Part shown: in pieces, positions 8,399-21,120 of the stretch
Layout: each line of letters begins with the position of its first letter
Position numbering within the stretch: position 1 is the first letter of the stretch
Source: Nitrospirota bacterium
GTDB taxonomy: Bacteria > Nitrospirota > UBA9217
Length of the DNA stretch: 40,338 nucleotides
Direction of reading: 5' to 3'
Assembly: GCA_963741205.1 (NCBI GenBank)
Contig: CAVUHW010000048.1
Coordinates: 1 to 40,338, forward strand
Notes under the pieces: generated by a model
Seen by the model: only the letters and a program-made list of their open reading frames with translations
Told to the model about the DNA's origin: nothing
Databases searched by the model: none
Program-made: the position numbers and the translations under genes

Positions 8399-9358
8399 GT
8401 GAAGATAATTGTTTTGGATGGATATACGTTAAATCCAGGGGACCTTGCGTGGGATAAACTGGAGAGGTTGGGGAAAGTTACCGTGTATGACCGTACTCCG
8501 TCAGATAGGACAGTTGAACGCATTGGTGATGCTGAGATAATCTTTACGAACAAGACACCGTTGACAAATGAAGTTTTCAATCAGGTTCATCATGTAAAAT
8601 ATGTAGGCGTATTGGCAACCGGTTATAACGTAGTGGATGTGGATACGGCAAAGGATAAAGGAATTATAGTAACTAATGTTCCGACATATGGAACTGCCGC
8701 AGTTGCACAATTCGTCTTTGCGCTTCTGCTGGAAATGTGCCACCACATATGGGCACACAGTGAAGAAGTTAAGAAGGGCGCTTGGGCCAATTCTCCCGAT
8801 TTCTGTTTCTGGAATTATCCGCTGATAGAGCTGGCGGGTAAAACAATGGGGATTATCGGGTTCGGAAGAATCGGACAGGCAACAGCAAAGATAGCCCAGG
8901 CCATGGGTATGAAAGTGCTTGTTTATAGCAGGTCTAGGGATGAAAAACTCGAAAACGCCACCCTAAAATATGTTGAACTGGATGATCTCCTGGCCGAAGC
9001 GGATGTCATCAGTCTTCATTGTCCGCTTCTTGAAAGTACCAGGGGAATTATCAATAAAAGTAGCATAGCAAAAATGAAAGACGGTGTAAAAATTATTAAT
9101 ACCTCCAGAGGTTTGCTGGTCGTGGAAGATGACCTCGCGGAGGCGCTTAATTCCGGAAAAGTGAGCGGTGCGGCAGTGGACGTCTTATCTACAGAGCCGG
9201 CAAAGATGGACAATGTGCTTTTATCGGCAAAGAACTGCATTGTTACACCCCACATCGCCTGGGCGCCAAAAGAGTCCAGGGCGCGGTTGATGAATATTGC
9301 TGTCGACAACTTGGAAAAATATCTTGCCGGCAATCCTGTAAACGTTGTAAATAAGTAA
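8399..9358 (+). CDS. hprA: D-2-hydroxyacid dehydrogenase (glycerate dehydrogenase/hydroxypyruvate reductase-like); GTG start after GGAG
   Basis: KIIVLDGYTLNPGDL, ATGYNVVD, GFGRIG, INTSRG and TPHIAW motifs. Confidence 0.85.
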   Translation: MKIIVLDGYTLNPGDLAWDKLERLGKVTVYDRTPSDRTVERIGDAEIIFTNKTPLTNEVFNQVHHVKYVGVLATGYNVVDVDTAKDKGIIVTNVPTYGTAAVAQFVFALLLEMCHHIWAHSEEVKKGAWANSPDFCFWNYPLIELAGKTMGIIGFGRIGQATAKIAQAMGMKVLVYSRSRDEKLENATLKYVELDDLLAEADVISLHCPLLESTRGIINKSSIAKMKDGVKIINTSRGLLVVEDDLAEALNSGKVSGAAVDVLSTEPAKMDNVLLSAKNCIVTPHIAWAPKESRARLMNIAVDNLEKYLAGNPVNVVNK

Positions 9359-9441: not shown

Positions 9442-9507
9442 AACACATTGAAGGGCTGCGTGTTAAACCGTGGCCGCTGTCCTGAGTTTCCTCGACCCGA
9501 TACCCTC
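9442..9507 (+). pseudogene. Inverted remnant of the vapC 3' end and its downstream flank
   Basis: aacacattgaagggctgcgtgttaaaccgtggccgctgtcctgagtttc nearly matches the reverse complement of ~14473-14538 and encodes HIEGLRVKPWPLS* (vapC ends HIEGLRVETWPLS*). Confidence 0.85.
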
Positions 9508-11027: not shown

Positions 11028-11059
11028 AAAAAGAGCTAATTCCTGATTGGAATTAGCTC
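11028..11059 (-). terminator. Intrinsic terminator, third copy of the element end
   Basis: gagctaattcc-tgatt-ggaattagctc hairpin followed by a T-run on the minus strand. Confidence 0.75.
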
Positions 11060-11118
11060 AAAAATTGTTCAAGTCTTCAGTGTAGTACCAATGCCCAAAT
11101 ACCAATAAAATATTTAAT

Positions 11119-11153
11119 AATCAATAACTTAAATGGTGGAGGCGGCGGGAATT
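11119..11153 (-). repeat. att-like copy of the tmRNA 3' end (11134-11153) with an adjacent IHF-consensus site (11119-11131)
   Basis: tggtggaggcggcgggaatt is identical to 20766-20785; aatcaataactta fits WATCAANNNNTTR. Confidence 0.85.
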
Positions 11154-11209
11154 TAATAGTTTGTCCAACCCACTGGTATTCCAAGATTATTTTTCAGCGC
11201 TAATACGAC

Positions 11210-11234
11210 ATACCCCAAATAGATACCCCGAAAA
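11210..11234. promoter_or_regulatory. ATACCCC direct-repeat pair, candidate integrase arm-type sites (also at 15458-15482)
   Basis: ataccccaaatagataccccgaaaa, about 55 bp inside the att core, identical in both units. Confidence 0.45.
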
Positions 11235-11351
11235 CATTGGATGTCATAAGACGGCGCCGGACTAATTCAGTCGTCATAGGACAACTGCGCGCTTGTTGAA
11301 CCTGCTGTCTTAAAATGCGTTGAGCGAAGCCGCTCTAGTCTCCTCAACTCA

Positions 11352-11380
11352 TTGTTCATTCCGGTGCTGTGTGCTAAAAT
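11352..11380 (+). promoter_or_regulatory. Sigma70-type promoter, probably giving a leaderless mRNA
   Basis: TTGTTC-17 bp-TAAAAT with TG extension, 7 nt before ATG 11388; conserved at 15603-15631. Confidence 0.55.
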
Positions 11381-11387
11381 CAGCGCC

Positions 11388-12017
11388 ATGAATTTCGAGT
11401 CTGCTGTTAATACCATGAACAATCTTCTGGCAAAGAATCAACCTCAGTCGTTTAACCGGGCATGGGTGCGCATAAACGCCCCATGTGTCTATCGCTTCGT
11501 CCAACGGGAAATCAGAGTCGAAAGCGGCGGCATCGACTGGGACCGGATGACTCGTGCCCTACATCCCAGATATCAAAGACAATGGACCGGGTTTTTTCGC
11601 AAGAAAGCCAAGCCGTATCGGGACCAGGCCGAGGTCGATACCGTTCTTCAACAATACGGTAATAAGCTCTATACATTCATCTCTTCACAAGGCAAAGAGG
11701 ATGAACACATACGGGACATCATCAGCATCGTACTCGTCAGAATTGCTCAAAAGGGGAACATCTCAGCCAAGCAGGAGATTATCAAACTGCTGAGCTCCAC
11801 AGTAGATAACTGGATCGAAAGGAATCCGAAATTGTCCGGCTGGCGAGGATATGACCAATTGATTCAGACCCGGCTTGACTGCTGCATACGTCGTTACCGG
11901 TATTCAGGGTCATTCATGCGCTATGTCTTCAAAACTTTCGAATATGCTGCCAGAGGGTTAAAACCGCTGATTGCCTACTCTCTGGATGACATAACACATT
12001 TTAGAAATAGGTGCTAA
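11388..12017 (+). CDS. Hypothetical protein (209 aa) with a sigma-70 domain-2-like C-terminal half
   Basis: Open frame, homologous copy in unit 2, and the pattern LVRIAQKGNISAKQEII...CIRRYRYSGSFMRYV...PLIAYSLDD. Confidence 0.6.
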   Translation: MNFESAVNTMNNLLAKNQPQSFNRAWVRINAPCVYRFVQREIRVESGGIDWDRMTRALHPRYQRQWTGFFRKKAKPYRDQAEVDTVLQQYGNKLYTFISSQGKEDEHIRDIISIVLVRIAQKGNISAKQEIIKLLSSTVDNWIERNPKLSGWRGYDQLIQTRLDCCIRRYRYSGSFMRYVFKTFEYAARGLKPLIAYSLDDITHFRNRC

Positions 12018-14413
12018 TCTTCGGTATAGCCGATATCCCGGAAACCGCGCAGTCGCTTTCTGTGCATCCGCAGGAGCTTCGGTACATTAACATCGACATA
12101 GTCGTAAACTCGAACTTCATGCTTACCCGGATGCTCCCGATGGAGCCTGCCCGCGTACTGTACGATGGTCCCCTTCCAGGAGAACGGCATGGCCAGAATC
12201 AACGTATCAAGTTGGGGATCGTCGAAGCCCTCGCCAAGGTAACGACCGGTTGCCGCAATGAGCCGCACTTCGCCATCTGGAATTGCCGCGAGCCTTGCCA
12301 TGGTTTCACGCCGCTCTTTGGCTGACAGTCTGCCACTTAATACGATAAGGTGCTTCACATCACCTCGCAATCCGTCTGCAAGGATGTCCAGATGTTCTTT
12401 CCGCTCCGTCAGGAGTACCGGCGATCTGCCTTCCTTTAGAGCCTGCTTAACATCGGCAAGAATAAGAGCGTTTCGCCGCTCATCCTTAACCAAGTCCGCG
12501 AAAATGTCCTGAATCGCGGCATCAGGATTTTCCATGGTAAATTCAGTTGTTCTGCAAATCAGTAGGTGTTTGAACTGCGTTATTGCCTCCTGGCTTTTCG
12601 GATGAACCGAAAAGCGGACCGGTCCGCACTGCATGTGAATGATCGGCTGGTGCCCGTCCCGGCGATACGGCGTAGCGGTCAGACCGACAACGTATCGCGC
12701 TTTCACCTCGTTCAGAACCCGCTCAAAGGATACCGCAGGGAGATGATGGCATTCATCCACGATCACCTGACCATAGTTGGCCACCAGATCGCTAACCTCG
12801 TCTTTTCGGACAAGGCTCTGGATCATTGCAACATCCAACCTCCCGTTCGGTTTGTTCTTTCCTGACCCGATCTTGCCGATTTCTTTCGGATCGATTCCGA
12901 GAAAGAGGGAAAGCCGGGCTATCCACTGATCAAGGAGCTCTTTCCTGTGGACAAGCACAAGCGTACTGCATCCTCGCGAGGCAGTGAGATACGCGCCGAT
13001 AACGGTTTTGCCGAATCCCGGTGGCGCTGACAGGACGCCGTTTTCGTACTTAAGAATTTCGTTGATGGCCTCTTGCTGTGGTTCTCTGAGTGTTCCTTGA
13101 AAAACAAATGAGAGATGAGCGGAAGCAAGGCGTTTATCCTCAAGCAAAAGCTTGACGCCGTGTTCCGAAAATAGCTCGCGGACATCGTCAATGCAGCCTC
13201 TTGGGATGGCAATATGCTCGGGGTGTTCTTCATAGCAGGAAATTACACGAGGTATCCGGGCTGTTGAGAGACGCAAGTTCTGCTTCTCGTAAAACATGGG
13301 ATTTTGAAACGAAGCCAAGCGTTTGATGCGGGTCAAAAAAGGCGATGGCAAATCCTTCTTCTCGATAAAGAGACGTTGAGCAATAACACCGTGCGTTTCA
13401 GATGGAAATTTACCGATGATTTTCTTTTTTGGTATTTTCTTCGACGCTGGCCGGTTCCATGGAGAATGATCGTCCCCGTCCTCGGCAGAATCTCTTGGTA
13501 CCCCGAGCACATCGCCTTGCCGTATCGCCTCAGTGGCGATCCGCTGGAGGGCGTCCGGCGCCAGTCGTCCGATTGATGCAAGATACTCCCATTGATCTTC
13601 ATAGGATGTGAAGCTTTCATCGAGAAATACCGTATTGCCTTTTTGTCGCGGTTCCTGTTGAAACGGCAGCGCGATCAGATTCCCGAATCCGCCCTTGGTC
13701 AGTGTGTCCTGGCTGGGAAACAACCGGTCGTAGGATTCCATGCTAAGTTGGTGACGCCGACTCATGGTTTCCGTGATCAGGTAACATCCCATCGTTCGCG
13801 CTGTAGCTGCCGGCACAGGTTCAGTAAAGAAAAACCATGCGTGCGCTCCGTTTCCCGAACGCGAACGCTCCACAGCCACGGGGATATTCATACTTTTGCA
13901 GGTTTCACGGAAAGCGCTGACATCGTCCATCCATGTTTCTTTATCGAAGTCAGCGGCAAGAAACCAGCAGGTATCGTCGGGCAGCATTGGGTAAACACCG
14001 ATCACATGACGCCCCTGGAGATGATCCATAATGACCTGGTCGGTTACTGGAAGGAATTTACGATTGGAGCACTCGCTGCATTTTACCGGCGGCTTGTGCG
14101 TCTTTCCGCATGTACCGGAAATCCAATCATTCGAACAGGCAGGAGAGTAGCCCTTCTTGCCGGCACGGCTTGTCCAAAGTTTCGGGAAGATATCCTCCCT
14201 GCCGCGAAATAACGAGCGGAACAACGACACTTTTTCCTGCGGTGTTCTGGTAGTGTAGGTTATCGGCGGCTCGGCGCACGCTGCTTCCAGCACGGCAAGT
14301 TGCTGTTTGAACGTATTGAGCCTTAAAAGCGCCTGTTCGCGTTCGCTGTCCAGCCTGGAAAGAAGGGCTTCTTCTTTTGCTATGGCCTGGAGAAGAGCTT
14401 TCTTGTCAGACAT
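12014..14413 (-). CDS. AEP primase (TOTE-type) fused to an SF2 DExH helicase, 799 aa
   Basis: N-terminus: four-Cys cluster, AADFD (DxD), SRSGNGAH, GNLIALP. C-terminus: APPGFGKT, DECH, TAT, QYAGRLHR. Confidence 0.85.
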   Translation of the reverse strand: MSDKKALLQAIAKEEALLSRLDSEREQALLRLNTFKQQLAVLEAACAEPPITYTTRTPQEKVSLFRSLFRGREDIFPKLWTSRAGKKGYSPACSNDWISGTCGKTHKPPVKCSECSNRKFLPVTDQVIMDHLQGRHVIGVYPMLPDDTCWFLAADFDKETWMDDVSAFRETCKSMNIPVAVERSRSGNGAHAWFFFTEPVPAATARTMGCYLITETMSRRHQLSMESYDRLFPSQDTLTKGGFGNLIALPFQQEPRQKGNTVFLDESFTSYEDQWEYLASIGRLAPDALQRIATEAIRQGDVLGVPRDSAEDGDDHSPWNRPASKKIPKKKIIGKFPSETHGVIAQRLFIEKKDLPSPFLTRIKRLASFQNPMFYEKQNLRLSTARIPRVISCYEEHPEHIAIPRGCIDDVRELFSEHGVKLLLEDKRLASAHLSFVFQGTLREPQQEAINEILKYENGVLSAPPGFGKTVIGAYLTASRGCSTLVLVHRKELLDQWIARLSLFLGIDPKEIGKIGSGKNKPNGRLDVAMIQSLVRKDEVSDLVANYGQVIVDECHHLPAVSFERVLNEVKARYVVGLTATPYRRDGHQPIIHMQCGPVRFSVHPKSQEAITQFKHLLICRTTEFTMENPDAAIQDIFADLVKDERRNALILADVKQALKEGRSPVLLTERKEHLDILADGLRGDVKHLIVLSGRLSAKERRETMARLAAIPDGEVRLIAATGRYLGEGFDDPQLDTLILAMPFSWKGTIVQYAGRLHREHPGKHEVRVYDYVDVNVPKLLRMHRKRLRGFRDIGYTED

Positions 14414-14494
14414 TGATTCTCCAAATCAAGGAATGGCGAGAGCATCACGAACAGGTTGAGGGGTGCGTCACGGAAGGTATCGAGACGAAGAAAC

Positions 14495-14890
14495 TCAGGA
14501 CAGCGGCCACGTTTCAACACGCAGCCCTTCAATGTGTTCAAAATGCTTTTTGTTGCCGGTAACCAGAACGGCCTTATGCGCGAGCGCCGTTGCCGCGATG
14601 AGGGCGTCAACCTCTCCTGTCGGTTTGCCGATGCCTCGCAGCCTGCTTTTGATGGTGCCAAATGAATCAGCGCATTCAAGATCAAATGGTACTATTTGAA
14701 CCACATCGAGCAACCTGGCCAGCTTATCAAGATTTCTCGAAGCATTCTGCGACGCCTTCGCGCCGAAATTCAACTCAGCAACAACTAGGGCGCTCAGCGA
14801 GACCTTGTCGATATTGTCCGCGATCCGCTCCGCTATGGCTTTATTGCCGTTCAGAAAAGCGATGACAACATTCGTGTCCAGAAGAATCAT
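14495..14890 (-). CDS. vapC: VapC PIN-domain toxin
   Basis: ILLDTNVVI, VAEL, DALIAATAL and LVTGNKKHF motifs. Confidence 0.92.
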   Translation of the reverse strand: MILLDTNVVIAFLNGNKAIAERIADNIDKVSLSALVVAELNFGAKASQNASRNLDKLARLLDVVQIVPFDLECADSFGTIKSRLRGIGKPTGEVDALIAATALAHKAVLVTGNKKHFEHIEGLRVETWPLS

Positions 14891-15129
14891 GCAAACCGGA
14901 CCTCTCTGCCGTGATACTGATGCCGCTCCTTTTCGAGTTCCTCAAAGATCGGCGCAATCGTGGTGTCATCCGCCCATGCACCGCAGAGCGAAGATATGAT
15001 CTTCCGCTTTTCGGCAGCCTTCAAGGCAGGTTCAATCTTGACGATCACCTTGGTACCTTCAGGAATTTTGACCTTTTTGGGAAGTCGAATCATACCCTTT
15101 ACTATTTTGCTCGTTACCGTGAATACCAT
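14887..15129 (-). CDS. Cognate antitoxin (VapB-like, 80 aa)
   Basis: Small gene with a GGAGG RBS and an ATGA overlap with vapC; G.IRLPKKVKIPEGTKVIV beta-rich N-terminus. Confidence 0.8.
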   Translation of the reverse strand: MVFTVTSKIVKGMIRLPKKVKIPEGTKVIVKIEPALKAAEKRKIISSLCGAWADDTTIAPIFEELEKERHQYHGREVRFA

Positions 15130-15217
15130 AGCACGCCTCCCAGCGACACATAAGAACCTCTATAAGACAGCACACGCATGACGGTTCTTACGAAGTTGCT
15201 CCTTCAAACATAGTCAT

Positions 15218-15246
15218 AAAATAGCATGGTCAGTATCATATGACAA
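15218..15246 (-). promoter_or_regulatory. vapBC-helicase operon promoter with an overlapping palindrome
   Basis: TTGTCA-17 bp-TATTTT with TG extension; conserved at 19483-19511, where tgtcatatgaca is a perfect palindrome. Confidence 0.55.
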
Positions 15247-15275
15247 GTGACATTTTTTTATACCAATGAGTTAAT

Positions 15276-15308
15276 AAAAAAGAGCTGATTTCTAATTAGA
15301 ATCAGCTC
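15276..15308 (-). terminator. Intrinsic terminator at the end of unit 1
   Basis: gagctgatt...aatcagctc plus T-run; has a compensatory base-pair change relative to the other two copies. Confidence 0.75.
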
Positions 15309-15365
15309 AATACTGCATAGGTCTTTCTGGAAAGTGCATGCTAAAATATCAATAAAACACTATAA

Positions 15366-15403
15366 AATCAATAACTTAAATGGTGGAGGCGGCGGGAATT
15401 GAA
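15366..15403 (-). repeat. att-like copy of the tmRNA 3' end (15381-15403) with an IHF-consensus site (15366-15378)
   Basis: 23 bp tggtggaggcggcgggaattgaa is identical to 20766-20788; identity ends at the T-loop. Confidence 0.9.
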
Positions 15404-15638
15404 TAGTTTGTCCAACGCTATTGATATTCCGAGATTATTTTTCAGTGCTAATATGACATACCCCAAATAGATACCCCGAAAACATTGGATGTCATAAGAA
15501 GGGCGCCGGACTAATTCAGTCGTCATAGGACAAAATGCGCGCTTGTTAGAACATGCTGTCTTAAAATGAGTTGAGAGAAGACGCTCTAGTCTCCTCAACT
15601 GATTGTTCATTCAGGTGATGTGTGCTAAAATCAGCGCC

Positions 15639-16273
15639 ATGAATTTCGAGTCAGCTGTTAATACCATGAACGAGCTTCTGGCAAAGAGACAACCTCAGAC
15701 GTTTGATCGTGCGTGGGTGCGCATAAACGCCCCATGTGTATATCGTTATATCTAACGGGAAATCAGCAGTCGAAAGCGGCGGCATAGACTGGGACCGGAT
15801 GACTCGTGCCCTACTTCCGAGATATCAAAAGAGAATGGACCGGATTTCTTCGTAAGAAAGTAAAGCCGTATCGGGACACAGGCCGAGGTCGATACCGTAC
15901 TTCAACAATACGGCAATAAGCTCTATACCTTCATTGCTCTTCGAGGACAGAGAGAGATGAACAGATACGGGACATCATCAGCATCGTACTCGTAAGAATT
16001 GCTCAAAAAGGAAACATCGCGGCCAAGCAGGAGATTATCAAACTGCTGAGTTTCACGGTAGATGACTGGATCGAAAGGAATCCGAATTTGTCCGGCTGGC
16101 GAGGATATGACCAATTGATCCAGACCCGGCTTGACTGCTGCATACGTCGTTACCGGTATTCAGGGTCATTCATGCGCTAGGTCTTCAAAACGCTTGAATA
16201 TGCTGCAAGAGGGTTAAAACCGCTGATTGCCTACTCTCTGGATGACATAACTCATTTTAGAAATAGGTGTTAA
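15639..16273 (+). pseudogene. Disrupted second copy of the sigma-2-like hypothetical gene
   Basis: Homologous to 11388..12017, with CAA>TAA (~15752), TAT>TAG (~16178) and several indels. Confidence 0.7.
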
Positions 16274-18676
16274 TCTTCGGTATAGCCGATATCCCGGAAA
16301 CCGCGCAGACGCTTTCTGTGCATCCGTAAAAGCTTCGGTACATTAACATCGACATAATCGTAGACTCGAACTTCATGTTCCCGGATGTTCCCGATGAAGC
16401 CTGCCCGCGTACTGTACGATGATCCCTTTCCAGGAGAAAGGCATGCAAGAATCAACGTATCAAGTTGTGGATCATCGAAGCCCTCTCCAAGGTAACGACC
16501 GGTTGCCGCAATGAGCCGCACTTCGCCGGCCGGAATTGCGCAGCCTTGCCATGGTTTCTCGTCGTTCTTTAGCAGAAATAGCCTACCGCTGAGAACTATG
16601 AGATGCTTCACGTCGTCATGTAAGCTAGCAGTGAGAATATCCAAATGCTTCTTTCCGCTCAGTAAGAAGCACCGGAGATCGGCCTTCCTAGAAGCGCCTG
16701 TTGAACGTACGGCGAGAATGAGAACGCGTTTCGCTGCTTATCGGTAACGAAGAGCAGCGTATATTTGCTGAATCGAAGCGTCGGGATCTTTCGATGAGTA
16801 AACTCGTTGTTCTGCAGATCAGCTGATGTTTGAATTGAGCTCTGGCTTCCTGGCTCTTCGGATGCACCTTATACCTGACAGGTCCGCACTGCATGTGGAT
16901 GATCGGCTGATGCCCATCACGCCGATAAGGCGTAGCGGTCAGGCAGACAACATAGCGTGCCTTGACCTCGCTCAGGACGCGCTTCGAAGGATACAGCGGG
17001 GAGATGATGGCACGATCACGATCACCTGACCATAACCGGCGACAACATCACTGACTTCATTCTTTCGAACCAGGCTCTGGATCATAGCAACATCCAATAT
17101 TCCATTCGGCTTGTTCTTCCCTGACTCCGATCCTGCCAATCTCCTTTGGCTCAATGCCAAGAAACAAGGAAAGCCTCGCGATCCACTTGATCCAGAAACT
17201 CTTTCCGGTGAACAAGCACAAGCGTACTGCAACCTCGCTTGGCTATGAGATGAGCGCCGATAACGGTCTTACCAAAACCAGGAGGAGCAGAGAGGACACC
17301 GAGATCATGAATGAAGTATTTCGTCGATGGCTTCTTGCTGCGATTCTCTCAACGTCTCCATGGAAAGAATACGATAGACTGGCGGGCGCAATGCGCTTGT
17401 CATCGAGTACGAGTTTCACGCCATGTTCCACGAACAGCTCGTGAAGGCTGTCGAGGCAGCCTCTCGGGATAGCGATGTGTTCAGGGTGTTCTTCGAAGCA
17501 GGATATCACGCGAGGGATTCGTGCCGTGGATAAGCGCAGACTCTGTTTCTCATAAAACATGGGATTCTGAAATGCAGCCAGCCGTTTGATGCGAGTAATA
17601 AAGTGACGACGGCAAGTCCTTTTTTCTCGATATACAGCCGTTGCGCAAATACACCGTTTGTTTCCGAGGGAAACTTACCAACGACTTTCTTATTTGGTTT
17701 TCTTCGGGATGGGGTCCTGCTCCAGGGAGACTTCTTCTTCGCCGTCTTCAGTATCTCTCGGCACGCCGAGTACATTGTCCTGCCGTTTTGCCTCATTGGT
17801 AAGCCGCTCGATCACCTCCAGCTGAAGCTTTTTGATCGACGCCAGATATTCCCATTGATCATCATAAGGTGAAAAGTTCTGTCCAAAAATACCGTATTGC
17901 TCTGTCTGTCGTGGTTCATGTTGGAACGGCAGCGCGATCAGGTTTCCGAAACCACCTTTGGTTAGGGTATCCTGGCTGGGGAACAAGCGATCATAGGATT
18001 CCATGCTAAGCTGATGCCGTCGGCTCATGGTTTCTGTGATAAGGTAGCATCCCATGATGCGCGCAGTCGCTGCGGGGATGGACTCGGCAAAAAAGAACGA
18101 AGCATGAGCCCCATTTCCCGAGCGTGATCGTTCTATTGCCACGGGGATGTTCATGCTCTTGCAGGTTTCGCGGAAAGGCGCTGATATCGTCCATCCACGT
18201 TTCTTTATCGAAATCAGCGGCAAGAAGCCAGCAGGTATCGTCGGGCAGCATGGGATAGACGCCGATCACATGACGACCCTGAGGTGATCCATAACGATCT
18301 GATCGGTGACAGGAAGGAACTTACGATTGTCGCACTCGCTGCATTTGACCGGAGGTTTACGCGTTTTTCCACAGGTGCCGGAGACCCAGTCATTTGTGCA
18401 GGCAGGAGAGTAACCCTTCTTACCGGCTCGGCTCGTCCATAGTTTCGGGAAGAGATCCGCCCTCCCGCGAAACAGCGAGCGGAACAATGCTACTTTTTCC
18501 TGCGGTGTTCTGGCAGCATACTTAATCGGCGTCTCGGCGCACTCCGTTTCCAACTCGGCAAGTTGTTGTTTGAACGTATTGAGCCTTAAAAGCGCCTGTT
18601 CACGTTCACTGTCCAGCCTGGATAGAATGGTTTCTTCTTTTGCTATAGCCTGGAGAAGAGCTTTCTTGTCAGACAT
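16270..18676 (-). pseudogene. Multiply frameshifted second copy of the AEP-SF2 helicase
   Basis: Fragments 18266..18676, 18006..18269, 17690..18223, 17243..17560 and 16270..16644, among others, match consecutive parts of 12014..14413. Confidence 0.8.
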
Positions 18677-18757
18677 TGATACACCAAATCAAGGAACGGC
18701 AAGAGCAGAAGGAACAAGTTGAGGGGTGCGTCACGGAGGGTGTCGAGACGAAGAAAA

Positions 18758-19153
18758 TCAGGACAGCGGCCACGTTTCAACACGCAGCCCTTCAATATGT
18801 TCGAAATGCTTTTTGTTGCCGGTAACCAGAACAGCCTTATGCGCGAGCGCCGTTGCCGCGATGAGGGCGTCAACCTCTCCTGTCGGTTTGCCGATGGTTC
18901 GCAGTCTGCTTTTGATGGTGCCGAACGAATCAGCGCACTCAAGATCGAACTGCACTGTTTGAACCACATCCAGCAACCTGGCCAGCTTATCAAGATTTCG
19001 CGAAGCATTCTGCGACGCCTTCGCACCGTAATTCAACTCAGCAACAACCAGGGCGCTCAGAGCGATTTTGTCGATATTATCCGCGATCCGCTCCGCAACT
19101 GTTTTATTGCCATTCAGAAAAGCAATGACGACATTCGTGTCCAGAAGAATCAT
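18758..19153 (-). CDS. vapC: VapC PIN-domain toxin, copy 2 (intact; start 19153)
   Basis: Differs from 14495..14890 at only a few residues. Confidence 0.92.
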   Translation of the reverse strand: MILLDTNVVIAFLNGNKTVAERIADNIDKIALSALVVAELNYGAKASQNASRNLDKLARLLDVVQTVQFDLECADSFGTIKSRLRTIGKPTGEVDALIAATALAHKAVLVTGNKKHFEHIEGLRVETWPLS

Positions 19154-19392
19154 GCAAAGCGGACCTCTCTGCCGTGATATTGGTGCCGCTCCTTCTCGAT
19201 CTCTTCGAAGATGGGCGCGATCGTGGCGCGCTCCGCCCACGCGCCGCAGAGAGCTGATATGATTTTCCGTTTTTCGGCGGACTTCAATGCAGGTTCGATT
19301 TTGACGATAACCTTTGTGCCTTCAGGAATCTTCACTTTTTTGGGAAGGCGAATCATTCCCTTAACTATTTTACTCGTTACCGTGAATACCAT
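19150..19392 (-). CDS. Antitoxin, copy 2 (intact)
   Basis: Near-identical to 14887..15129. Confidence 0.8.
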   Translation of the reverse strand: MVFTVTSKIVKGMIRLPKKVKIPEGTKVIVKIEPALKSAEKRKIISALCGAWAERATIAPIFEEIEKERHQYHGREVRFA

Positions 19393-19536
19393 AGCTCACC
19401 TCCCTCGCAACACCTAAGAACCACTCTAGGACAGCAAAAGCAGGACGATTCTTAAATATATTACTCCTTCAAACATAGTCATAAAATAGCATGGTCAATG
19501 TCATATGACAAGCGACATTTCAATACCAATGAGTTA

Positions 19537-20651
19537 CTAATCAGAGCAATAAATAGTTTGCATTCTGTATCTTAATATGGTATAACTTGGGCATGAAAAA
19601 ACGTGATGCCCGGTCGTTGTCCCCTGAAGCGCAAGAAGCTATCCGCCAGAAAGCGGTTAAGGCTGTCATTGGTGGTAAGAAACAGGTCGAAGTTGCACAG
19701 ATATTCGGTGTTACGCGTCATGCCGTCGGAAAATGGATCGTAGCACACCGAGCAGAGGGCGCGAAAGCGCTTGCAGCCAAGCGACGAGGCCGACCGACGG
19801 GCGGTTCGCTGAAGCCATGGCAGGCGGATAAGGTCAGCAAAACCATTCAGGATCGTCTGCCTGACCAGTTGAAACTGCCGTTTTACCTGTGGACTCGCGA
19901 AGCCGTAGCCCAGCTGATTGCTAAGAAGTTCGATATCGAGCTTTCGGTCTGGACGGTTGGCCGCTACTTGGCCCAGTGGGGTTTTACCCCGCAGAAGCCG
20001 GTGCGTCGGGCCTTTGAGCAGAACTCTGAAGAAGTGCAGCGCTGGCTTACGCATGAGTATCCCCGGATCCGTGCGCAGGCAAAGCAAGAAAAAGCCGAGA
20101 TCTATTGGGGAGACGAGATGGGGTTGCGGTCCGACCACGCTACCGGCCGGACCTACAGCCCTCAAGGTGAAACCCCTGTCATTCCAGGAACGGGGCAGAG
20201 ATTCGGATGCAACATGGTCTCTGCCATTACGAACAAAGGGCGTCTTGCGTTCATGGTGTTTCGGAAGCGGTTCCGTGACGATGTGTTCACCGGTTTCCTG
20301 AAGCGCATGGTTCGCCAGTCCACACGAAAGGTCTTTTTGATCGTAGATAGACATCCTGTGCACCGTTCCCGTACCGTAAAGAAATGGCTTGCCGAGAATG
20401 AAAAGCAAATTCGTCTGTTCTATTTGCCGTCCTATAGTCCGGAGCTTAATCCGGATGAGATGTTGAACCAGGACGTTAAAAGTAATGCTGTCGGACGGAG
20501 GCGAGCGCACACGCAGGACGAGTTACTGTCCAATGTCCGCGGTTACTTGCGAAGCCGACAGAAGAGACCGACTATCGTTCAAAGTTATTTTCAGGAGAAG
20601 CACGTTCAGTATGCTGCTTCATAAATGCAAACTATAATGTGCTCCCCTTAG
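19537..20651 (+). mobile_element. IS630-family insertion sequence, 1115 bp, TA target duplication
   Basis: Imperfect 28-bp terminal inverted repeats (ctaatcagagcaataaatagtttgcatt / aatgcaaactataatgtgctccccttag), TA at 19535-36 and 20652-53, and an empty site in unit 1 (~15265-15280). Confidence 0.92.
19593..20624 (+). CDS. IS630 transposase
   Basis: N-terminal HTH, WGDE, IVDRHPVH and YLPSYSPELNPDE DDE motifs. Confidence 0.95.
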   Translation: MKKRDARSLSPEAQEAIRQKAVKAVIGGKKQVEVAQIFGVTRHAVGKWIVAHRAEGAKALAAKRRGRPTGGSLKPWQADKVSKTIQDRLPDQLKLPFYLWTREAVAQLIAKKFDIELSVWTVGRYLAQWGFTPQKPVRRAFEQNSEEVQRWLTHEYPRIRAQAKQEKAEIYWGDEMGLRSDHATGRTYSPQGETPVIPGTGQRFGCNMVSAITNKGRLAFMVFRKRFRDDVFTGFLKRMVRQSTRKVFLIVDRHPVHRSRTVKKWLAENEKQIRLFYLPSYSPELNPDEMLNQDVKSNAVGRRRAHTQDELLSNVRGYLRSRQKRPTIVQSYFQEKHVQYAAS

Positions 20652-20657
20652 TAATAC

Positions 20658-20691
20658 AAAAAAAGAGCTAATTCCTAATTAGAATTAGCTC
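20658..20691 (-). terminator. Terminator downstream of ssrA, at the end of unit 2
   Basis: gagctaattc...gaattagctc plus T7 on the minus strand, about 75 nt after the CCA end. Confidence 0.8.
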
Positions 20692-20765
20692 AAGACTGCA
20701 TAGGTCTTTATGGAAAGTGCATGCAAAAAGATCAATAAAAAAACACAGTAATATCATAACTTAAA

Positions 20766-21120
20766 TGGTGGAGGCGGCGGGAATTGAACCCGCGTCCGAA
20801 AACCTTCAGCCAGAAGCTCATACATGCTTATCCCCTCTTTTAAAGCTCTCGCTTCATCCAGCGCCTCAGGGAAAGCTTTGGAATCGGCCAGCCCGGTTTA
20901 TCTCATCTTCCCGCCCCGGACGAAGTCGGGAAGACCAGCCTGGTTTGTGACGTCTCTGCGACTGTTCAGGCGCCGGCCGCGAAACGCGCTGACTAGTTAA
21001 TTAGGCAGCGAGTGCCAGTTCGTTATTGGCAGTTGATCTTTACCATGTGTTTAACGAGCCCCATGGTACCTCGGCATGCAACTCCTAACCTCCGTGTCCC
21101 CGTCGAAGCCTGTCGCCCCC
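20766..21120 (-). ncRNA. ssrA: tmRNA (355 nt); tag peptide (A)ANNELALAA* at 21030..21001
   Basis: 5' GGGGGCG pairs with 3' CGCCUCC-ACCA with a G3:U wobble; T-arm GCGGG-UUCAAUU-CCCGC; tag frame ends LAA-stop. Confidence 0.96.

Follow-up and report, generated by a model that had tools for sequence, protein, structure and literature searches.

A tandem array of two integrase-less units with a primase-helicase gene at the tmRNA gene of a Nitrospirota bacterium

Background

Islands that insert into genes for transfer RNA (tRNA) or transfer-messenger RNA (tmRNA), here called tDNAs, regenerate the gene, and the displaced 3′ fragment marks the far end of the island; the tmRNA gene is the most enriched island target, and crossovers at the T-stem/loop or centred on the anticodon are the two classical tyrosine-integrase classes, according to the excerpted text on Islander (PMC4383910). 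Here we describe a tandem array of two units with such ends, A and B, downstream of the tmRNA gene ssrA in a Nitrospirota bacterium of the lineage UBA9217 (assembly GCA_963741205.1, contig CAVUHW010000048.1). The window, by which we mean the whole stretch of 40,338 nucleotides that was analysed, is the entire contig C48 of the metagenome-assembled genome (MAG) G000, which is 84% complete with 4.9% contamination and comprises 50 contigs. The units are bounded by copies of an attachment site (att) and carry a VapBC toxin-antitoxin (TA) pair, a gene or pseudogene for an archaeo-eukaryotic primase (AEP) fused to a superfamily 2 (SF2) helicase, hereafter the AEP-helicase, and a conserved hypothetical frame, orf221.

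With Islander islands these units and their relatives share the regenerated target, the displaced fragment and both crossover classes, but Islander accepts an island or array member, as the excerpts state (PMC4383910), only with an integrase of its own, and neither unit has one. Extracts on the Streptococcus ICESt1/ICESt3 family (PMC5704250) describe cis-mobilizable elements (CIMEs), which are flanked by attL and attR and stacked by accretion at the 3′ end of a target gene; like the units here they have no integration or transfer genes, and their movement is thought to need an integrase-bearing neighbour. Both units keep attL and attR and lack integration and transfer genes, and in published terms they are, by analogy, CIME-like. 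A preliminary description of this DNA, made from the sequence alone, had seen in them an undescribed system, and this claim finds no support, as CIMEs with accretion and the ssrA islands of Dehalococcoides had already been published. In the same extracts CIMEs are sporadic decay products derived from integrative and conjugative elements (ICEs) or integrative and mobilizable elements (IMEs), whereas we observe a uniform layout across genera with two or three att types, a conserved primase-helicase of the units' own and no integrase-bearing parent among close relatives; two integrases occur in the distant relative L065, and plasmid homologues lie in conjugative backbones. Mobilisation by a neighbour would be our reading of the sequences, its sole hint being genome G020, where an integrase island and an AEP-helicase unit are co-resident.

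The ssrA islands of Dehalococcoides form tandem arrays with ~20-bp ssrA 3′ repeats and T-loop insertion, and 15 of them have no integration module and were suggested to be CIMEs, as reported in the excerpts of PMC3146451; they differ from the present units in their serine recombinase module (DsiB), their rdhA cargo and their much larger size. For the units here, arm repeats and a candidate helper point to a P4-type tyrosine integrase, and the cargo is a TA pair with the AEP-helicase. P4-like satellites and phage-inducible chromosomal islands are small tDNA-integrated elements that combine P4-type integrase specificity with a primase-helicase replication gene. The units differ from them in having no integrase and no capsid-redirecting, interference, packaging or other phage-related genes, and their primase is an AEP fused to an XPB-like SF2 helicase. 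Integrative mobile elements exploiting XerCD (IMEX) at dif, as well as integron cassettes, are also recombinase-less, use an enzyme encoded elsewhere and form arrays at one site; their site, enzyme families and ends are different, and neither XerCD/dif nor IntI or attC plays a part here.

Results

Two colinear units bounded by displaced tmRNA 3′ ends

We found that the 3′ end of the intact tmRNA gene recurs twice downstream (Table 1), within a 33-nt block of 23 nt of tmRNA and 10 nt of downstream sequence at 20756-20788, 15371-15403 (100% identical) and 11124-11156 (97%). The terminal 22 nt of the tmRNA are exact at 15381-15402 and have one mismatch at 11134-11155, and a chance origin of the 22-nt exact repeat in 40 kb is excluded by a wide margin. 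Read along the tmRNA strand, the block of identity begins in the T-loop (TTCAATT). All three copies are followed by ~105 nt with a terminator hairpin, which makes the repeat an att-like module and more than a gene tail. The three positions of the ssrA 3′ end in the preliminary description (20766, 15381 and 11134) are thus borne out by ARAGORN, Rfam and a repeat search, with the correction that the repeat also holds the ~105 nt with the tmRNA terminator. An intact tDNA with a displaced 3′ fragment in direct orientation, here present twice, is what Islander looks for in an island; the crossover lies at a canonical sublocation (the T-loop here, the anticodon loop in tRNA-Glu relatives), and an intact tmRNA with displaced direct 3′ fragments and a T-loop crossover is, in the excerpts of PMC4383910, an established signature of tyrosine integrases.

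Unit A (11134-15380, 4247 bp) carries four genes, vapB-like, vapC, the AEP-helicase gene and orf221, and unit B (15381-20765) amounts to 4306 bp after removal of an IS630-family insertion sequence (IS; 19556-20632) and one TA dinucleotide. The size given earlier for unit A stands, and the 4268 bp given for unit B falls 38 bp short because the IS ends had been placed differently. Alignment with the IS removed confirms that the units are colinear with an identity block ending in the T-loop, as had been described, at 84.3% global identity with 85 gap columns; a 41-nt insertion in unit B adjoins the IS site.

Table 1. Features of the array, in the order in which they follow along the tmRNA strand (positions in the window)
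Feature	Position	Strand	Remarks
tmRNA (ssrA), tag ANNELALAA	20766..21120	-	ARAGORN; Rfam RF00023, 194 bits; single tmRNA
att copy 1, final 23 nt of tmRNA	20766-20788	-	inside intact tmRNA gene
Proximal arm of unit B, element-borne, downstream of tmRNA	20660..20765	-	terminator hairpin 20665-20691
IS630-family element in unit B	19556-20632; with TA copies 19554..20634	+	terminal inverted repeats GTTTGCATT/AATGCAAAC
vapB-like antitoxin, unit B	19150..19392	-	intact; 92.5% aa to unit A; dN/dS 0.04
vapC (PIN) toxin, unit B	18758..19153	-	intact; 93.9% aa to unit A; dN/dS 0.12
AEP primase-polymerase/SF2 helicase pseudogene, unit B	16270..18676	-	12 stops in read-through
orf221 pseudogene, unit B	15603..16270	+	two frames; tblastn pieces 15603-15956, 15827-16270
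Distal arm, unit B	15403..15483	-	GGGGTATCTATTTGGGGTA ... TTGGACAAACTATT, directly before att copy 2
att copy 2, displaced tmRNA 3′ fragment	15381..15403	-	23/23 identical
Proximal arm of unit A, terminator-bearing, after att copy 2	15277..15380	-	hairpin 15282-15308
vapBC promoter-like site, after proximal arm of unit A	15246-15218	-	
vapB-like antitoxin, unit A, AF2212-like fold family	14887..15129	-	Pfam PF01954 7e-5; 4-nt overlap with vapC
vapC PIN toxin, unit A	14495..14890	-	Pfam PIN 7e-21; NCBIfam VapC models
AEP primase-polymerase/XPB-like SF2 helicase fusion, unit A	12014..14413	-	799 aa, intact
orf221, unit A, conserved hypothetical	11352..12017	+	convergent with helicase; probably 209 aa from 11388
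Distal arm, unit A	11156..11235	-	GGGGTATCTATTTGGGGTA ... TTGGACAAACTATT
att copy 3, displaced tmRNA 3′ fragment	11134..11156	-	1 mismatch, in T-loop
Segment after att copy 3; chromosome resumes below	11028..11133	-	terminator hairpin 11033-11059
vapC 3′-end relic, 66 nt, with downstream sequence	9442..9507	+	91% to unit A 14473-14538

VapBC are the only genes intact in both units. Upon comparison with its closest relative, the helicase of locus L042, the unit B helicase shows 23 frameshifting indels within the in-frame region and one nonsense codon. The frameshifts comprise 15 insertions and 8 deletions, mostly 1-nt insertions outside homopolymers; such an insertion bias is odd for the decay of a bacterial pseudogene, and mis-polishing from a mixed population is possible. 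The many synonymous and conservative changes previously reported between the units, illustrated with peptides that are the N-termini of the two helicase copies, hold for VapBC and for the first 136 helicase codons, and do not hold for the rest of the unit, where the B helicase and orf221 are broken. A proposed check of the ratio of nonsynonymous to synonymous substitution rates (dN/dS) was run; in addition to the values for vapB and vapC in Table 1, it gave 0.05-0.10 for the helicase against 4 relatives, and the helicase is under strong purifying selection.

The inserted element shows what is expected of the IS630 family, that is, a DDE_3 transposase (ORF 19587-20624; Pfam DDE_3 1e-37; NCBIfam transpos_IS630 220 bits), terminal inverted repeats and a duplicated TA target (19554-19555 and 20633-20634). 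Two contigs from the sequencing runs of two other samples, matched at 90% likeness, join across it (19536 to 20658 and 19534 to 20652, with sides of 40 and 46), which fits an IS-free relative. Past the third att copy and beyond a PilZ gene, the vapC relic of Table 1 is inverted with respect to the units and hints at older island debris.

No integrase in cis

Comparison of the unit genes with Pfam, NCBIfam, PADLOC and PHROGs revealed no integrase or resolvase, and the sole transposase is that of the IS630. The earlier statement that neither unit encodes a recombinase is accurate for integrases and needs amending for unit B, which holds the IS630 DDE transposase. All seven PF00589 matches in the genome (7/7) lie on contigs other than C48, and in the same genome we found no intact integrase linked to the arm box or the GGGGTA pair described below, only a fragment on contigs C19 and C21. 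As to an excisionase, the segment 11100-11420 holds no plausible ORF of at least 25 aa, its ORFs not having been scanned against families.

The relatives show the same. PF00589 was found by Pfam in 0/5 repeat-bounded AEP-helicase units (A, B, G016/L037, L042 and L051b), and recombinase families other than DDE transposases in 0/60 ORFs around 17 close metagenome loci. These 60 come from 75 ORFs of at least 130 aa listed for the 17 loci, the remainder being housekeeping ORFs far out in the flanks of L131, L137 and L155 and, in L182, those ORFs that match L181; the Pfam scans of related-genome neighbourhoods covered 51 of 104 ORFs in one listing and 51 of 65 in another. A family of small integrase-less tDNA-bounded elements, which had been proposed, is supported by the five bounded units and by its recurrence in Nitrospirota.

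Separate ancestry of units A and B

In a nucleotide tree of 14 helicase genes, the unit B helicase is sister to L042, which belongs to a tRNA-Glu element in another genome (86.8% nucleotide identity, support 0.996), and the unit A helicase groups with L041 and L044 on the tmRNA-type side (~86%); the helicases of A and B are 79.7% identical to each other. A sliding comparison revealed a mosaic. A and B are 91-95% identical in the 3′ part of vapC, the 3′ end of the helicase, orf221 and the arm, and the central 1.5 kb of the unit B helicase is 85-95% identical to L042 and 68-84% to A, a pattern that speaks against local duplication and for two elements that later exchanged ends. Sequence comparison thus establishes that the two units were acquired separately, and the earlier view that they are no recent exact duplication is sustained by the 84% identity, the tree and the mosaic. 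Furthermore, the helicase is 89% identical in amino acids to that of L041, compared with 56-70% for syntenic flanking genes, which points to horizontal spread.

Recurrence of the family in other genomes

A helicase match at E ≤1e-20 was present in 15/61 related genomes, and six genomes carry close copies (78-89% amino acid identity), namely one congener and five members of the same family that belong to different genera. When scanning one genome per species, we found 62 helicase loci, 8 of which have a co-oriented tRNA or tmRNA gene at most 1.5 kb upstream of the helicase. These are tmRNA in L041 and L043, tRNA-Glu in L042 and L048, tRNA-Thr in three Chromatiaceae (L056-L058) and tRNA-Leu in a Bacillales MAG (L065). 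The terminal 20 nt of the tDNA recur past the helicase in L042, L043, L051 (twice) and L065, and a tmRNA fragment follows 83-190 nt after the helicase in L046/G020, L047 and L043. For example, G016 (L037, the same place as L043) has a 4.0-kb direct-repeat-bounded unit at tmRNA with a HigB-type TA and no integrase, and L042 is an integrase-less repeat-bounded unit at tRNA-Glu; the bounded units of G016, L042 and L051b consist of a TA or helix-turn-helix gene and the helicase, without an integrase. A metagenome scan added 33 close relatives, and 19 of these have att features of the tmRNA or tRNA-Glu type or a neighbouring tRNA gene, which in one relative of 68% identity is tRNA-Asn. In the distant L065, two tyrosine integrases lie inside the direct repeats, showing that the AEP-helicase gene also rides in integrase-mobilised elements.

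Accumulation in arrays, as had been suggested, recurs in three further cases. In L051 (4855-14486), from another Nitrospirota MAG, tRNA-Glu is followed by two units in tandem. The first (L051a) is of another kind, encoding a DnaB-type helicase, an unknown protein of 606 aa and the 121-aa tail of an integrase (26.7 bits against a cut-off of 27.1), and the second (L051b) is an AEP-helicase unit whose helicase is broken. G004, a congener of G000, has at least three junctions after the tmRNA, and L128 is a multi-junction metagenome array whose VapBC-helicase unit is 87-94% identical in amino acids to the units here. Just past the last L051 repeat we also observe a group II intron reverse transcriptase, and L128 1-4160 holds several consecutive junctions, with a ~80-nt degenerate tmRNA 3′ copy and then an IS4/IS5-type transposase.

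The ends fall into distinct arm types. The tmRNA-type distal arm reads GGGGTA, 7-8 nt, GGGGTA, ~37 nt and then TTGGACAAACTATT abutting the core, and 9 junctions in 5 genomes share the GGGGTA pair followed by a TTGGACAAAC box, with 25 invariant columns. In its own genome the GGGGTA pair occurs in the two units only, with 0 matches for a reversed-pattern control. In the tRNA-Glu units both arms carry different repeats (TGTCGTAGAATTGTAGTAG), and the duplicated stretch of the tRNA is 44 nt, beginning at the anticodon loop. Homology between unit B and L042 is limited to VapBC and the helicase (3.1 kb, 85%) and ends at both att modules, and in other relatives it is limited to the helicase, from ~80 nt or less upstream of its start, which indicates a constant helicase around which TA pairs and att modules can be exchanged. 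The AEP-helicase is indeed the sole gene common to every family member. A survey of ssrA-downstream regions, proposed in the preliminary description, recovered the same ends with variable junctions and cargo in relatives, as expected, and also some copies away from any tDNA. Overall, what appears particular to the family is its uniform integrase-less layout, with a constant primase-helicase and swappable TA and att modules, and to judge from these loci it is spread across genera and two or three tDNA targets.

A candidate helper integrase at the tmRNA of congeners

What lies downstream of the tmRNA varies among congeners. In G006 the tmRNA is followed by a terminator, three copies of GGGGTAAC, a P4-type integrase with Arm-DNA-bind_3, Phage_int_M and Phage_integrase domains, and then a defence-gene island. 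G020 has a 97% identical integrase directly at the tmRNA, with three copies of GGGGTAAC between terminator and integrase, and on a separate contig an AEP-helicase unit that ends in the arm module and a tmRNA fragment. In the genome of the array itself, contig C19 at ~8720-9216 (L113 1248-1750) holds two copies of GGGGTAAC, TTGGACAAACAATT, a tRNA-like core, a terminator, a further GGGGTAAC and an integrase fragment; this junction is duplicated at the end of C21, whose last 2386 nt are 99.9% identical to C19. The search for an integrase with matching repeats, which had been recommended, yielded a candidate in congeners, a GGGGTA-flanked integrase at their tmRNA, and in the own genome a fragment only. 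No tRNA gene was found near the orphan junction in the scanned 20 kb of C19 or 15 kb of C21. Upstream of the C19 junction lie a DUF2760 gene and two Hsp70-like genes, of which one carries DUF3731.

Homologous integrase islands in G031, G029 and G025 were considered for their far ends and rejected, as they lie at tRNA-Glu(ctc) and tRNA-Ala and the motifs are absent. An empty site could not be defined by synteny, the PilZ flank having no counterpart in congeners, and among public sequencing runs none contained more than 0.14 of the sampled words from the stretch. An apparent join from 11151 to 20765 is uninformative, as the 21 letters on one side are the repeat itself.

The AEP-helicase and the other unit genes

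In the unit A helicase, residues 60-291 cover the full model of the AEP-TOTE domain PF22548 (331.7 bits, E 3e-99), residues 441-759 form the SF2 helicase part (ResIII/DEAD/Helicase_C), and the motifs DFD, SGNGAH, GFGKT and DECH are readable in the translation. In sequence comparison the helicase half resembles archaeal XPB (6p4f_A, E 6e-20) and the AEP half 7nqd_A and 7nqf_A (E ~1e-11); an NCBIfam model for CRISPR-associated primase-polymerases scores 102 bits, under its cut-off of 200. TOTE stands for TPR, OB, TBP and Effector, as quoted in the excerpted preprint bioRxiv 10.1101/2025.09.15.676423. With these conflict systems the helicase shares the effector domain; the partners are missing here, where VapB, VapC, the helicase and orf221 match no TPR, CSD or TBP family, and they were unseen in most relatives examined, with one TPR protein near the G026 copy.

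Distant relatives (Treponema, Oscillospiraceae, Eremiobacterota, lactobacilli) are single genes beside Abi, TA, Fic and restriction-type genes, and in none of the 12 distant loci was a TPR-OB or TBP partner seen. In L133 (807-2635) and L134 (2450-4278), the helicase directly follows a pair of an AAA_21 ATPase and a DUF4276 gene, with no tDNA nearby. Full-length plasmid homologues (~50% identity) were found in 98 plasmid records, and in 6 plasmid contexts their neighbours on conjugative rhizobial plasmids are ParB, ArdC-like, DUF736 and TA genes. In 2/6 of these, L120 (Agrobacterium pusense pA) and L121 (Gemmobacter fulvus p3), three tandem tyrosine recombinases adjoin the helicase, a layout that we take to resemble the 'recombinase in trio' elements. 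Among 50,697 phage records there were 0 full-length matches of the helicase, and no viral contig held a relative, so a phage or satellite origin was rejected; PHROG matches of the unit genes were to helicase and primase families only. The neighbours, the plasmids and the missing phage matches together mark the helicase as an accessory gene of mobile DNA. From these contexts, it may act in priming or replication of the excised or incoming element, or in conflict with invading DNA. In the literature searched we found no experimental test of a PF22548 AEP primase-polymerase/XPB-like helicase.

VapBC has the layout of a type II TA system, a PIN toxin after a small overlapping antitoxin gene, and the unit A VapC scores 113 bits in NCBIfam, under the equivalog cut-off of 140. 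The protein of orf221 has no family match in Pfam, NCBIfam, PHROG or PADLOC, and its family comprises 388 homologues, mostly of ~209 aa and without a Pfam domain; many lie on short contigs, and the names attached are those of Nitrospirota and Thermodesulfovibrionales. It is often convergent with the AEP-helicase (L135, L137, L141, L148), and in G004 it also occurs inside a helicase-less unit. A model built on 29 homologues is all-helical (pLDDT 79) and had no Foldseek match at E ≤0.001 (best E 2.9); the best VIA match has Z 7.0 (AAA lid domains), and region-2 chains of ECF sigma factors have Z 5-6, within helical-bundle noise. The idea that orf221 is a hidden recombinase was accordingly dropped, as it has no family match, its model is an all-helical bundle and no recombinase-like structure matched.

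Discussion

The reading that we favour, and regard as somewhat better than evenly supported, is that the tmRNA gene bears a tandem accretion array, formed by two separate site-specific insertions of related, att-bounded islets without an integrase, which borrowed one. Along the tmRNA strand an islet begins with a copy of the tmRNA 3′ end and a terminator, which repairs the split gene; there follow a TA pair (here VapBC), the AEP-helicase, here also orf221, and the distal arm, whose two GGGGTA hexamers and TTGGACAAACTATT box abut the crossover point in the T-loop. We infer that insertion was the work of a tyrosine integrase encoded outside the islet, which a co-resident or incoming island would supply, the best candidate being the P4-type integrase with GGGGTAAC repeats that lies at the congeners' tmRNA. 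Once inserted, the proximal unit B decayed, its helicase and orf221 breaking and the IS630 being gained, with VapBC staying intact, as is usual for addiction modules; the distal unit A is intact and under purifying selection. In G000 the array is probably immobile at present, because only an integrase fragment was assembled.

Several observations weigh against this reading. The only P4-type integrase of the own assembly is the fragment on C19, limited to residues 100-182 and with stops, and an intact member of its family occurs in 1/8 close-helicase genomes, namely G020 (the eight being G000, G004, G010, G016, G019, G020, G021 and G026), which amounts to no positive co-occurrence with the close helicase. 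The TTGGACAAAC box is absent from the integrase-bearing G006, G003 and G013, and the link to the P4-type integrase consequently lies in the GGGGTA repeats and the adjacency; moreover, homologues of the integrase with 64-75% identity lie at other tRNAs without GGGGTA repeats. The GGGGTA repeats of the units are on the distal arm only, so the units may be poor substrates for recombination. Close helicase copies are found away from any tDNA in G026, G021 and L133-L135, and the wider family is mostly a single gene in a defence-like setting, with an integrase within 5 kb in 1/12 loci. Finally, we saw neither an excision product nor a circle junction or an empty site, the short low-depth contigs of 4 runs spanning neither a unit nor the A/B junction.

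The absence of an integrase in cis can also be explained by fixed wreckage, in which the integrase was deleted from once complete islands and the immobile remains were kept by the TA pairs and perhaps a useful helicase. We consider this possible yet rather doubtful. Unit B is plainly decaying, and a ~200-nt 'empty' unit after the tmRNA (terminator, GGGGTA pair, TTGGACAAAC box and degenerate core in L041, L043 and L054, the first three of these parts in L112) looks like the scar of a deleted island; G003 keeps the last 64 integrase residues beside its tmRNA, L051a retains its 121-aa integrase tail, and CIMEs are decay products by definition in the extracts of PMC5704250. But the layout is uniform and not ragged, with the helicase stop 83-240 nt from the distal core (L042, L043, L046, L047, L051b, L059), at least two att modules (tmRNA T-loop and tRNA-Glu anticodon-loop) surround helicases that are 85% identical in nucleotides, and the counts of cis integrases among close relatives, in the bounded units and around the metagenome loci, are zero; the helicase is moreover under purifying selection, with a between-genome similarity above that of core genes. 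Conversely, the islets could have been 'born' as integrase-less hitchhikers, that is, minimal replicons of a TA pair and an AEP primase-helicase with interchangeable att modules, which would parasitise the integrases of tDNA islands (P4-type at tmRNA, others at tRNA-Glu and tRNA-Asn), amplify as circles by means of that primase-helicase once excised, and form an array of exchangeable cassettes. This stronger proposal we put forward tentatively, as an unlikely one on present sequences; if true, it would describe a counterpart, at tDNAs, of integron cassettes or IMEX elements.

Three further explanations have little in their favour. Local tandem duplication by unequal crossing-over between att repeats, followed by divergence, would account for the colinear units and for the parts that are 91-95% identical, but we judge it very improbable, as the centre of the B helicase resembles L042 more than A, the tree parts A from B with support of 0.996-1.0, and the alike ends are better explained by recombination or gene conversion between two resident elements. 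We give scarcely more credence than a long shot deserves to an assembly artefact in which two strain variants of a single-copy island were stitched through the shared att repeat: the array is a whole contig of a MAG with the contamination given above and no read or contig over both units was found, but the units diverge by 16%, each is bordered by different junction sequences, the array passes without a break into single-copy sequence on either side, and like arrays exist in independent assemblies (L051, G004/L132, L128). Insertion without a recombinase, with the AEP-helicase itself copying or inserting the unit at tRNA-like 3′ ends, perhaps through template switching or priming, would be in keeping with the helicase being the one gene common to all units, with its co-oriented position just downstream of tmRNA, tRNA-Glu, tRNA-Asn, tRNA-Thr and tRNA-Leu in three phyla, and with the lack of a cis integrase in Nitrospirota. 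We regard it as highly unlikely, because the ends are like classical att sites with arm repeats and canonical tDNA crossover points, the att modules vary while the helicase stays constant, the majority of family members are not at tDNAs, and the tRNA-Leu member L065 has its two integrases.

Integrase-less units such as these are missed or discarded by standard island finders, because the finders demand an integrase per island. The pairing of the AEP-helicase with TA genes on islets and conjugative plasmids makes it a good bench candidate for a role in element replication or in conflict. If the units are merely decayed remnants, the locus is an ordinary integration hot spot. If, as the accretion reading has it, they are mobilised in trans, they would represent mobile DNA of a widespread class that annotation overlooks, and tDNA hot spots would be cassette platforms in environmental phyla such as Nitrospirota.

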